From the IMG/VR virus record IMGVR_UViG_3300037692_000137, positions 170,229 through 234,228 of that record: 64,000 nt of DNA; one strand, written 5' to 3'. This document shows, piece by piece, positions 10,144 to 57,059 of the stretch; within the stretch, counting starts at the first letter, position 1; each line of letters starts with the position of its first letter. Source of the stretch: a virus. Lineage: Duplodnaviria > Caudoviricetes. The notes under the pieces were generated by a model that saw only the letters and a program-made list of their open reading frames with translations, made no database searches and had not been told where the DNA came from. The position numbers and the translations under genes are program-made.

Positions 10144-10407
10144 CATATATATTCGAGTAAGATCGTTAAACTTACCCCGTCTATAATTTCTAGACAGCTG
10201 CATGTTTCCATACAGATTAGACTATATCACCAACCAATCTGGTTGCTACGCGCTTCCACTCACTTGAGTGTACTTCCTTTCGGAATAGTCGTTGCAGGTT
10301 CCTCATTAATAGAGGCTTCCCTCAGGATTGTCCTCGACTTGACGTTAGGATATTCCCTGAATTCACGTAGTTTTTCAAATCACATTACTGTAAAAAGCCG
10401 CCTATGG
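10144..10407 (-). ncRNA. Group I self-splicing intron (IA2-like, 264 nt, no homing endonuclease)
   Basis: P1 CCGU/GCGG with U.G at the 5' splice site; P2 with GUAA loop; P3 CUACGUG/CGCGUAG; P4 UCAGG/CCUGA; R CCUGCAACGACUA; S GAUAUAGUC (P7 GACUA/UAGUC); P7.1 UUCC-GAAA-GGAA; P7.2 CACUC/GAGUG; P8 CAACCA/UGGUUG; P9 UGUAUG-GAAA-CAUGCA; terminal G; removal restores an in-frame Csp. Confidence 0.93.
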
Positions 10408-10455
10408 ACGGTCGTTAGAAAACCATTTTACAACACCATTAATTCTTTCTTCCAT
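10408..10455 (-). CDS. csp: Cold-shock protein, exon 1 (MEERINGVVKWFSNDR)
   Basis: AAAGGAG SD; G-VVKWF Csp N-terminal motif; joins in frame to exon 2 (71 aa product). Confidence 0.9.
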
Positions 10456-29756: not shown

Positions 29757-30044
29757 ATTATATTACTATACTATCATGGTCATCTATTTATAGGTCCGCA
29801 AACTATTTTATTGTATACACCTACATACAAACGCTATCGTTGTTATGTAGTTGAAATTTAAATAAAATATAGCCAAAGGGACCCATATAGTAAGTCATGT
29901 AGAAAGGTATATATTACAGACTTATAGGGCCCCCTTATGCGCATTTTTGATTTTTACCCTGAGTAATGATGGTTTGTTTTTTACCTGTATTGTGAAGGAT
30001 TACCCTTCTATTTATTAATCTTTAGTCCTGTAAGGAGATTTGTC

Positions 30045-30317
30045 ATGTCTACATCTATTATTTTAGCGCGGCCTTCAAACCTCTCAAATACTTTCTCTTC
30101 CTCCGATGGTAAAATCACTGCTATCGCTGGCCGTTGTGGTGAATTTGACAATGCCCACGTTCTGGAGGTTATCACCCCTAAGGGCACCTACCACCTTTCG
30201 GGGGACAGGCTTGGTCAGAATCTTACCCGTTACACTGGCTATGCCCCAGAACACTTCCTTATAGCAAAGTACGATAAAGGTTCTATTATCCTTAGCTGGA
30301 CACCTTATCGTAAGTAA
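30045..30317 (+). CDS. Early hypothetical protein (90 aa)
   Basis: AAGGAG SD; TPKGxYxL motif shared with 30714..30986. Confidence 0.6.
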   Translation: MSTSIILARPSNLSNTFSSSDGKITAIAGRCGEFDNAHVLEVITPKGTYHLSGDRLGQNLTRYTGYAPEHFLIAKYDKGSIILSWTPYRK

Positions 30318-30342
30318 TTATAAGGTATACGCCTTGTACTAA

Positions 30343-30410
30343 TGTCGAAACCCCGCTATGAGGGGGCCTGTTAGGACTGGACCCCCTAATACTGATGATG
30401 ATAGACCAAC
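30343..30410 (+). ncRNA. Type II hammerhead ribozyme, degenerate copy (U16.1 to C)
   Basis: UGUC-GAAA-CCCC/GGGG-C-C-UGUUAGG/CCUAAUA-CUGAUGA-U-GAUA. Confidence 0.65.
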
Positions 30411-30441
30411 TACTAACCTTTTATCCTGTAAGGAGGATGCC

Positions 30442-30678
30442 ATGAACATTCAACACATCTGTAAGTCCCAAACTAATTGTAAAGCACAGCCTGCTGCCAA
30501 TTGTGCTGGTTGTTTCTACTACGACACCGTAAAAGAAACTGCTATATGTGTATGCTGTAACCTGGCGGCTGACCAAGGCAGTGAGTACTGTGGCTTCTGT
30601 AATCCAGTCTACCAAGAGCGTTTCAGGAAAGCAGTTATCCGTGAATCCGCTGGCCTTCATAGTGAGTATGATATTTAG
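30442..30678 (+). CDS. Cys-rich early protein (78 aa; start re-called)
   Basis: AGGAGG SD before the ATG at 30442. Confidence 0.6.
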   Translation: MNIQHICKSQTNCKAQPAANCAGCFYYDTVKETAICVCCNLAADQGSEYCGFCNPVYQERFRKAVIRESAGLHSEYDI

Positions 30679-30713
30679 TCATCTCAACAACCTTTTATCC
30701 TAGGAGGATAACC

Positions 30714-30986
30714 ATGAGCAAACACGTCGCAAAACAACAGCACTCTTTCCCTTTAACAGCAGTAAAGACTGTAGGTAAACAGTCAGTTCTATTTGAGACC
30801 ACTCCTGCTGGGTTCTCAGTAGCTTGGTGCGACAGTACTCCTGATAGAGTTACCCTCACAACCCCTAAGGGTAAGTACACTCTTATCAAGCACAGAACAT
30901 TGGGCTACTACCACGGTGTTTGTGGTGGGTTTAAGGTTCAGGTATCACTTAAAGTCCAGGTGGGTGAGCTTCGAGCCTGGTATTAA
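30714..30986 (+). CDS. Early hypothetical protein (90 aa)
   Basis: AGGAGG SD. Confidence 0.6.
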   Translation: MSKHVAKQQHSFPLTAVKTVGKQSVLFETTPAGFSVAWCDSTPDRVTLTTPKGKYTLIKHRTLGYYHGVCGGFKVQVSLKVQVGELRAWY

Positions 30987-30989
30987 CCA

Positions 30990-31055
30990 CTGTCGAAACC
31001 CCTCTATGAGGGGTCTATTAGGGCCGGCCTCCTAATATTGATAATGACAGGCCAA
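30990..31055 (+). ncRNA. Type II hammerhead ribozyme (predicted cleavage after C31015)
   Basis: Stem II CUGUC/GACAG; GAAA; stem III CCCCUC/GAGGGG; GUC cleavage triplet; stem I UAUUAGG/CCUAAUA; core UUGAUAA (U3-A8 covariant of C3-G8) plus an extra U; loop I GGCC can pair with 3' GGCC. Confidence 0.85.
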
Positions 31056-31262
31056 CTAACACAACCTTTTATCCTGATGGAGGGATACCCATGAAAGAAT
31101 TACTTACAGCAGATGAGTCTTTTGAGAATGTAGCACATATACTTGAAGTATTAGCCCTGGCAGATGAGGCTGATTTTGAGTTTATTAATTAACATTTTTT
31201 TGCCAGATCTATGTGGCGTAGCATTACCCTATACAGCTGCTAAGCAGCAAAGGAGCAGTATT

Positions 31263-31463
31263 ATGTTTATTTGTGAGGTATGTGGCTGTGCTTTTGGCGG
31301 AGACTGGTCGCCGGTATGTGATAAACAAACGTGCTATGATGCCTTCATGCAGCATGCCTGCACTGATGAGGAGAACTGGGGGCCTGAGGACGGTGGATGT
31401 TGCCCTTGTAACAGCCCCAGTTGTGATGGCACTTGTGCTAAACAACAAGGAGAACTACTATGA
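31263..31463 (+). CDS. Cys-rich early protein (66 aa; start re-called)
   Basis: AAGGAG SD; MFICEVCG. Confidence 0.55.
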   Translation: MFICEVCGCAFGGDWSPVCDKQTCYDAFMQHACTDEENWGPEDGGCCPCNSPSCDGTCAKQQGELL

Positions 31464-31669
31464 ACTGTATTAAAAACTGTGTTAAATGTGTCGAGTCTGA
31501 GTGTGCTTCCCACCCACTTAAAGCACAACTTAAGAAGTGTACTCGTTGTGGAGCTATGGAGGTATTAACAATCACAGAGTATGGGGCCACAGCTTCCTGC
31601 CCTAACGATAAGCACCCCGCTCGTATCCTTAGCGCAGCCAGCAACGTATGGGCGGCTATGGGTTGCTAA
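31460..31669 (+). CDS. Cys-rich early protein (69 aa)
   Basis: AGGAG SD; coupled. Confidence 0.55.
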   Translation: MNCIKNCVKCVESECASHPLKAQLKKCTRCGAMEVLTITEYGATASCPNDKHPARILSAASNVWAAMGC

Positions 31670-33360: not shown

Positions 33361-33434
33361 AAGGAGACACACGCCATGTCATTACGTTCAATTGTATGTA
33401 CGTGTCGCCGCACCCAGACAAGCCACACTTTCTT

Positions 33435-33502
33435 GTCGATTGGGCGACTATAAATAGGCATTAGGCCCAAAGCGCCCCTATCTATACCAGGTAGGGGGTT
33501 GC
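33435..33502 (+). ncRNA. Pistol ribozyme (predicted cleavage G33498/U33499)
   Basis: P1 GUCG/CGAC, loop AUUGGG pseudoknotting with CCCAA; UAUAAAUAG; P2 GCA/UGC; UUAGGCCCAAAGCG; P3 CCCCUAUCU/AGGUAGGGG; G-U cleavage dinucleotide. Confidence 0.88.
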
Positions 33503-33541
33503 TCTCTGTGTTAGTTTATTAACTTTATATAAGGAGATTGT

Positions 33542-34861: not shown

Positions 34862-34940
34862 TAACGTGAAGGGCAAACCCGGAGCAATCCGGGGACGCAA
34901 AGCTATGGGCCCTCATTGTGAGGGCAGCCAGGTTACCAAA
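34862..34940 (+). ncRNA. c-di-GMP-I (GEMM-I) riboswitch
   Basis: AAG-GGCAAACC-CGGA-GCAA-UCCG-GGGACGCAAAGC-UAUGG-GCCCUCA/UGAGGGC-AGCCAG-GUUACC; GNRA loop; G at the position equivalent to G20. Confidence 0.9.
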
Positions 34941-34965
34941 CAAACCGAATTACAGGAGAATTACC

Positions 34966-56041: not shown

Positions 56042-57059
56042 AAAAATAGTAAAAGCTGTAACTAAAAAGAAGCCTCCGGCTAAAAAGCCGGCACTTAAAG
56101 AAGATGATCTTAATGTAATTTCAAGCCAACTCCTTGGAATAAAGGGGTTATGGTCAACGGCTACTTTAGAAAAGGCCCGTGTTCTGTACCTTGAAGGAAA
56201 ACACCCTGATTTGGCGGTTATTTTACCACATCTAAGAGATAACCCTGATGAGTTTATTCAGCGCCTTATGTTAAGCAGAGCTTTACTTATTGGTGAGGCA
56301 TACGATAAAGCTGTACCTTTGACATTTGGCGCCGATCCAGAGTTTATTCTGGAAAATGAGGCAGGAGAAATTGTATTATTCTCAGCAAATATGTGTCAAG
56401 GTAATACTATAGTTATGTCAGAGGCAGCAATTGGCGCAGATTATGGCCTTATGGAATTTAGGCCCGAATATGCTCGTACAATTCCTACTTTTATAAAGAA
56501 TCTTGATGCGTTACAGAATAATTTTGTTGCAAACTTTACTAAACTACGTATTAAACGTAGTGAAGCTGAGGTGTTTGATCATAAAAAAATGCGCATATTG
56601 GAACAGCTTGAAGATGCCCTTATAGATCACGGCGTGCAAATAGCCAAAGGGTTCTTTGTAGAACAGAACATCAATCTTGATGATGAAAGTTCCTATGCCA
56701 AAATGTCTATCTCTGCTTACGATGAACCGTTGTTTGGTTCTAACAGGAAGGACATCCTGTCTGCCGGCGGGCATATTCATATTGGCGGGACTTTTATCAA
56801 GATGTTGTCACTTCCACAAATGAAAGAGTTCGTTCGTAGAATTGACACACTCGTGAAACCAATGTGTGCCGCTGTCGAAACACCTGCCGCAGCATTAAGG
56901 CAGGAGGTTTATGGGTTTCCTGGAGAGTTCCGAATTAAACCCTATGGCCTGGAATACAGATCACCAAGTAATGCCATTTTCTGGCCGGAAAACAGAAAAG
57001 TGCTAAGTGAGATTTTAACCGTAATTAAAGGAGAAGCTGAAAGTTTCTTTATTAAATAA
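56016..57059 (+). CDS. phiEco32-like COOH-NH2 ligase type 2
   Basis: TFGADPEF, GADYGLMEFRP, AGGHIHIG, YGFPGEFRIKPYGLEYRSPSN. Confidence 0.85.
   Translation: MTEISQIVKKIVKAVTKKKPPAKKPALKEDDLNVISSQLLGIKGLWSTATLEKARVLYLEGKHPDLAVILPHLRDNPDEFIQRLMLSRALLIGEAYDKAVPLTFGADPEFILENEAGEIVLFSANMCQGNTIVMSEAAIGADYGLMEFRPEYARTIPTFIKNLDALQNNFVANFTKLRIKRSEAEVFDHKKMRILEQLEDALIDHGVQIAKGFFVEQNINLDDESSYAKMSISAYDEPLFGSNRKDILSAGGHIHIGGTFIKMLSLPQMKEFVRRIDTLVKPMCAAVETPAAALRQEVYGFPGEFRIKPYGLEYRSPSNAIFWPENRKVLSEILTVIKGEAESFFIK

Follow-up and report, generated by a model that had tools for sequence, protein, structure and literature searches.

A Probable Type II Hammerhead Ribozyme with a U3-A8 Core Pair between Small Genes of an Uncultured Large Phage

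Introduction

Can a phage hammerhead whose core carries U3-A8 in place of C3-G8, together with an extra U beside stem II, still be a self-cleaving ribozyme kept by selection, or is such an element the remnant of one? The question is raised by a locus in an uncultured virus record of 234,228 bp (estimated completeness 89%), within its final 64 kb; this 64-kb stretch is here called the window, and all positions without a contig name refer to it. The type II architecture and its loop I/3'-tail pseudoknot, which is kinetically important, have been described previously (Perreault et al. 2011; PMC3088659). From the letters alone, the original prediction had recognized a type II hammerhead at 30990-31055, with intact stems I-III, a GUC cleavage triplet, the core UUGAUAA, a U inserted before stem II and a possible GGCC pseudoknot between loop I and the 3' tail. 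It also took the C3-G8 pair of a sister copy at 30343 as covariation within one genome, and hence as support for function. In this study, we follow up both copies, hereafter HH2 (the U3-A8 element) and HH1 (the sister copy), through their folds, their scores with covariance models, their counterparts in related phages and the behavior of the 3-8 pair across phage hammerheads at large.

Results

HH2 lies between two small genes, in a block that also holds HH1 and a pistol ribozyme (table 1). The two hammerheads and the pistol fall inside 3.2 kb. At the curated Rfam cut-offs no hammerhead is called in the 64-kb window. Scanning for promoters and terminators produced nothing exceeding the shuffled expectation, and no terminator-like site was called in HH2. 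Downstream of HH2 comes a AACCUUUUAUCCU leader with a hairpin that contains the Shine-Dalgarno sequence. This leader and hairpin occur in three copies in the genome (30415-30445, 30689-30716, and 31063-31093), each preceding one of the consecutive small genes. The 32-33-aa gene is found 5' of the 78-aa gene in relatives and 3' of HH2 in the window, a difference in gene order that is consistent with shuffling or recombination at the thrice-repeated leader. As for the 66-aa gene, its start is likely the ATG at 31263 (31263-31463), by homology with relatives that begin with MFICE or MFTCE; in the protein collection the same locus appears as a GTG open reading frame in another frame (31273-31473). 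A paralogous origin of the two 90-aa upstream genes was considered and found unsupported (E = 0.039 over 16 residues).

Table 1. Coordinates of HH2, its parts and other features of the window
Feature	Position	Strand	Remarks
Group I intron	10198-10417	-	Passes Rfam cut-off
HH1, sister hammerhead	30343-30410	+	C3-G8 and extra U; RF02276 30.7 bits; R1 52 bits
Upstream 90-aa gene	30714-30986	+	Stop codon 3 nt before HH2
HH2, predicted type II pseudoknot hammerhead ribozyme, U3-A8 core	30990-31056	+	67 nt; from sequence, descriptor and covariance models
HH2 stem II, 3' strand CUGUC	30990-30994	+	Partner 31046-31050
HH2 core G12 A13 A14 A15.1	30995-30998	+	GAAA invariant across family alignment
HH2 stem III hairpin ACCCCUC/GAGGGGU, loop UAU	30998-31014	+	30998-31004 with 31008-31014; includes A15.1-U16.1
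HH2 predicted cleavage site, C17 (31015)/U1.1 (31016)	31015-31016	+	From hammerhead consensus, cut after GUC
HH2 stem I hairpin UAUUAGG/CCUAAUA, loop GCCGGCCU	31016-31037	+	31016-31022 with 31031-31037
HH2 pseudoknot, loop I half GGCC	31026-31029	+	Partner 31050-31053
HH2 core U3 U4 G5 A6 U7 A8 A9	31038-31044	+	UUGAUAA, not CUGAUGA
HH2 extra U between A9 and 10.1	31045	+	Read from sequence
HH2 stem II, 5' strand GAC (extendable to GACAG), then GGCC pseudoknot half	31046-31053	+	Pseudoknot half at 31050-31053
AACCUUUUAUCCU leader, Shine-Dalgarno hairpin and downstream 33-aa gene	31063-31192	+	ATG at 31091
Pistol ribozyme	33434-33503	+	RF02679 65.3 bits (gathering score 34.5); 2.4 kb downstream of HH2, same gene block
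c-di-GMP-I-GGC riboswitch	34863-34941	+	Passes Rfam cut-off

A permissive type II descriptor, run over both strands of the whole genome, returned HH2 as the sole full match with three stems of convincing length; the few remaining matches in the 234 kb have minimal 3-4-bp stems and non-consensus cores. [quoted passage not shown] Eleven consensus positions of the core are canonical, all of the unpaired core nucleotides included, and C3 and G8 have been jointly swapped for U3 and A8. Stem II can reach 5 bp, but we assign to it the 3 bp typical of the family (30992-30994 with 31046-31048), following the other members. In most type II hammerheads, loop I forms a pseudoknot of at least 4 bp with the nucleotides that follow stem II, and HH2 has such a pseudoknot as well. 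The segment after the 5' strand GACAG of its stem II reads GCCAAC, and G31050 is contested between the possible 5-bp stem II and the pseudoknot. On the anatomy the original prediction fared well. Sequence, descriptor scan, MFE fold and the covariance model R1 described below all confirm a type II hammerhead with three stems and a GUC triplet at the place it had named; the UUGAUAA core and the inserted U are read directly, the two GGCC halves of the suspected pseudoknot do face each other in loop I and in the 3' tail, and the predicted cut after C31015 fits the hammerhead consensus. A GTCGAAAC-like site at 56874 was considered as a further hammerhead and rejected, as it lies within coding sequence and has no hammerhead fold.

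A search with the type II covariance model had been proposed as a check, and its outcome is twofold. The Rfam model Hammerhead_II (RF02276) does recognize HH2, with 32.2 bits (E = 2e-4 in the 1.1-kb region scanned), yet HH2 and HH1 (30.7 bits) both stay under its gathering score of 37. In HH2, we ascribe the shortfall to the U3 and A8 positions and to the inserted U. We also used a covariance model, R1, made from 45 diverse hammerheads on unrelated viral contigs, with the sequences of the window and of its lineage excluded. R1 assigns 64.8 bits to HH2 (E about 8e-16) and 52 bits to HH1, and these two are its only matches in the 64-kb window and in the entire 234-kb genome; given that the R1 seeds come from pattern scans anchored on GUCGAAAC, these scores speak to membership of that subfamily.

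Related phages were reached only via the 78-aa protein encoded between HH1 and HH2, which was searched in a large protein collection; many contigs from groundwater and sediment encode homologues with 83-92% identity to it. A metagenome scan with the lineage-specific stem III/stem I string gained one new contig, blastn of 29900-31500 against GenBank phages gave no match, and searches of the two flanking 90-aa proteins and of the 253-aa protein against viral contigs found no relatives. A hammerhead occupies the junction of HH2 in contigs L238-L243, L249, L246, L254, and L255, where it lies 3' of an 86-88-aa gene and 5' of the AACCUUUUAUCCU leader and the next gene. Stems III and I of these orthologues are identical to those of HH2, and their scores exceed the Rfam cut-off (50.3 or 44.6 bits vs. 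37). The L238 type (L238-L243 and L249) has the core CUGAUGA, with C3-G8, and a G after A9. In three separate contigs (L246, L254, and L255) the core is CUGAUAA, with a mismatched C3·A8, and a U follows A9. Both types have the stem II ACC/GGU and the pseudoknot UGGUC/GACCA, whereas HH2 combines the core UUGAUAA and a U after A9 with the stem II GUC/GAC and the pseudoknot GGCC/GGCC. Relative to both, then, two compensatory pairs have turned stem II from ACC/GGU into GUC/GAC, C-G has replaced one U-A pair of the pseudoknot, whose terminal U-A is missing (4 bp vs. 5), and the core pair, C-G or C·A in the orthologues, is U-A. The best evidence for selection on HH2 to keep the hammerhead fold comes from these double changes, which preserve pairing.

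The C3·A8 elements are found at L246:3044-3109, at L254:814-879 and on the minus strand of L255 around 879, and score 44.6 bits with the Rfam model. These sequences suggest the persistence of a mismatched C3·A8 core pair in natural phages. A single metagenome (3300025030) contains both the C-G and the C·A alleles, and C-G, C·A and U-A alleles of the orthologous site coexist within this phage lineage. Relatives of the L244 type lack both the upstream gene and the ribozyme; thus, the ribozyme cassette is optional or dispensable.

The sister copy tells a different story. HH1 has the C3-G8 pair that had been reported for it, but also a feature that the original prediction left unmentioned, a C at position 16.1, which makes the triplet GCC instead of GUC and produces an A15.1·C16.1 mismatch. 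Position 16.1 is U in 86/86 relatives scanned, C16.1 being unique to HH1. Stem III contains an extra G, stems I and II include G·U pairs, the pseudoknot UGGAC/GACCA contains a mismatch, and the predicted fold is not that of a hammerhead. Identity between HH1 and the orthologues is about 89% over 103 nt. Judging from sequence and predicted fold, HH1 is probably an impaired paralogue of the ribozyme of this lineage, and its impairment is more likely than that of HH2. With C16.1, a mismatched pseudoknot and a predicted misfold in one of the two copies, covariation between them is doubtful. The argument from two paralogues is weak alone; the conclusion drawn from it, that covariation of the pair supports function, stands on the orthologues and on the family-wide counts given below. 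We also considered, and rejected, the release of a 648-nt circular RNA by the two hammerheads: the genome has no RtcB, and HH1 looks impaired. Perreault et al. could not detect circularised products released by hammerheads (PMC3088659).

The family-wide behavior of positions 3 and 8 was followed in IMG/VR, scanned with the pattern GTCGAAACCCC..GGGGNC..TGATRA, in which position 3 is left free. Self matches excluded, the scan yielded 86 hammerheads with the same layout (GUC-GAAA-stem III-GUC-stem I-core-GAC-A-pseudoknot tail); tandem arrays are common among them. Among 189 hammerheads at loci fetched regardless of position 3, the pair is C-G in 188 and U·G in one, with neither U-A nor C·A. Dedicated scans, designed around the other states, retrieved structurally valid matches with U-A (106, about 70 distinct), U·G (25, 19 distinct) and C·A (2). 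The U-A matches span roughly ten or more unrelated sequence groups, and many of the sequences, from many other phage lineages, have the extra U alongside U3-A8. Of 189 relatives, 39 (about 20%) insert a nucleotide after A9, and the inserted base is U in 113/115 cases. By these sequence counts, U3-A8 is rare yet recurrent in phage type II hammerheads, and positions 3 and 8 act as a base pair across them.

In a 49-sequence alignment the full structure, pseudoknot and 3-8 pair included, is 91.7% paired, against 66.7% with shuffled partners (0/500 shuffles reach the observed value) and 32-45% with partners shifted by one to three columns; the percentages of stems I and III and of the pseudoknot are inflated, as our own structural filter chose the sequences, and the 3-8 pair was left unfiltered. 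The pseudoknot columns, subject to the same inflation, are 81.5% paired, with changes on both sides in 4/5 pairs. The scans also brought in, as by-catch, type II hammerheads with an A3-U8 core (AUGAUUA), at L119:4972-5041 (IMG/VR contig 3300025617_000062) and similar loci. This third Watson-Crick state adjoins U3-A8 copies in the same phage contigs. In addition, a large group of contigs of about 13 kb from sample 3300045988, within L143-L229, bear one U3-A8 (in some, U3·G8) hammerhead each. It lies some 500-1,000 bases from one end of the contig, the extra U being present in some and absent in others, and a small phage family may have conserved this feature.

Discussion

Our findings support a model where HH2 is a genuine pseudoknot-stabilised type II hammerhead of the common intergenic phage kind, kept by selection and probably active. 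This is the reading we favor with good, if not full, confidence, and it draws on sequence comparison and on structural modeling. HH2 would be transcribed together with the upstream gene, within a polycistronic message of small early-region genes. We infer the co-transcription, like the cleavage that follows, from the established behavior of the family; the stop codon lies 3 nt before HH2, and no promoter or terminator signal stands out. The RNA would fold into the three-helix junction, loop I being clamped to the 3' tail by the 4-bp GGCC/GGCC pseudoknot, and would cut itself between C31015 and U31016. The message of the upstream 90-aa gene would then have the stem III hairpin and a 2',3'-cyclic phosphate at its 3' end, and the downstream message would start at the stem I hairpin with a 5'-OH, 75 nt before the AUG at 31091. 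Such cleavage may in turn affect message stability or translation. [quoted passage not shown] In agreement, U3-A8 double mutants are described as active in vitro (Przybilski and Hammann 2007, as cited in PMC3088659). Cleavage of polycistronic transcripts, in vitro and in Escherichia coli, has been reported for prophage hammerhead clusters that flank single genes (PMC3088659), and cleavage in vivo by type II hammerheads of Desulfovibrio vulgaris was shown by cyPhyRNA-seq (PMC8782182). Against our model we counted the sub-cut-off Rfam score, the shortness of the pseudoknot, the competition for G31050 and the absence of the element from the L244 type. As to the pseudoknot, its reduction from six to four pairs in the construct of Perreault et al. 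made cleavage ~20-fold slower (PMC3088659).

Some of the same points could be read as signs of decay. HH2 would then have inherited its fold, but cleavage would be too slow on account of U3-A8, the inserted U and a short pseudoknot, leaving the element decaying or strongly attenuated. The other copy in this genome, HH1, shows plain degradation (C16.1, pseudoknot mismatch, misfold), the cassette is missing from some relatives, HH2 itself remains under the Rfam gathering cut-off, and a C3·A8 allele that persists in relatives suggests relaxed constraint in the lineage. Yet a decaying element would not be expected to show four independent compensatory double changes relative to its orthologues, nor to keep every unpaired core nucleotide canonical and a clean junction as its predicted fold, and many other phage lineages possess the very combination held responsible for slow cleavage, U3-A8 plus the extra U. 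We therefore regard decay as distinctly unlikely. Alternatively, HH2 could be active but tuned, slower or dependent on conditions, with the U-A, C·A and C-G alleles setting different rates of processing for the downstream genes. The three allelic states at the orthologous site, two of which (C-G and C·A) occur together in metagenome 3300025030, would be in line with this, as would the suggestion of Perreault et al. that slow phage variants might be regulated (PMC3088659); however, neutral or mildly deleterious polymorphism would explain the alleles just as well, and the 67 nt of HH2 include no ligand-binding or sensor element. We lend this reading little credence. That HH2 is no ribozyme at all, but two hairpins that resemble a hammerhead by chance and act as a terminator, as a stability element or within a translation leader, is scarcely credible: simple hammerhead consensus matches do arise by chance in large databases and HH2 does sit in a reused leader region, but the R1 match (E about 1e-15) has a single companion in 234 kb, the orthologues pass the Rfam cut-off, neither hairpin is followed by a U-tract, no terminator-like site is called in HH2, and the leader copy at 30689 has no hairpins ahead of it.

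With HH2 taken as a genuine and probably active hammerhead, the three alleles of this lineage invite a further thought. They might be the natural record of a compensatory evolution of the core pair that passed through a still-working C·A intermediate. We deem this scenario unlikely, if worth stating. The pseudoknot-stabilised fold might, for instance, accommodate the intermediate in the form of a protonated A+·C wobble, and, if so, phage hammerheads could cross this "valley" with processing retained. For annotation, the lesson is more immediate: the curated Rfam cut-offs miss variants of this sort (32 vs. 37 bits), although these are genuine and viral metagenomes contain a fair number of them. 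The existing picture, in which self-cleaving RNAs divide up the small-gene blocks of large phages, is upheld and left unchanged.

How, then, does HH2 compare with known hammerheads? Among its close counterparts are the orthologues of its own lineage, with which it shares the junction after an 86-90-aa gene and before the AACCUUUUAUCCU leader, as well as identical stems I and III, and from which it is set apart by its U-A core, GUC/GAC stem II and 4-bp pseudoknot. Its extra U has parallels in other hammerhead types and hosts. De la Pena and Flores are said to have reported, in 2001, a nucleotide between A9 and 10.1 in the CChMVd (+) hammerhead. The hammerheads of Penelope-like elements also have a nucleotide at this place (PMC4209133), and the likeness to HH2 is in both cases one unpaired nucleotide between A9 and the first pair of stem II. 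With the type II pseudoknot hammerheads at large (RF02276; PMC3088659; PMC11300833), HH2 has in common an open stem II, closed stems I and III, the GAAA, the GUC site, a CUGAUGA-type core and a pseudoknot right after a 3-bp stem II. The setting is shared too, namely intergenic, on the coding strand and among small phage genes, with clusters that flank one or two genes. It departs from them by U3-A8 for C3-G8, the extra U after A9, the 4-bp pseudoknot and the score of 32.2 bits. Natural U3-A8 covariation was already noted by Perreault et al. (2011), who mention "several hammerhead ribozyme examples" (PMC3088659), and about 1,300 minimal hammerheads with U3-A8 were described from Penelope-like retroelements of Schistosoma (Cervera and de la Peña 2014; PMC4209133). 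The latter show the same double change, which retains a Watson-Crick pair between positions 3 and 8; they are, however, minimal type I forms of eukaryotes, whereas HH2 is a type II pseudoknot form of a large phage and has orthologous C-G and C·A alleles in related phages. Overall, neither the U3-A8 core, nor the extra nucleotide after A9, nor the pseudoknot is new, and HH2 is a known core covariation in a known context; what it adds is a well-documented switch of the core pair from C-G to U-A, with orthologues that form a series of C-G, C·A and U-A in one lineage.
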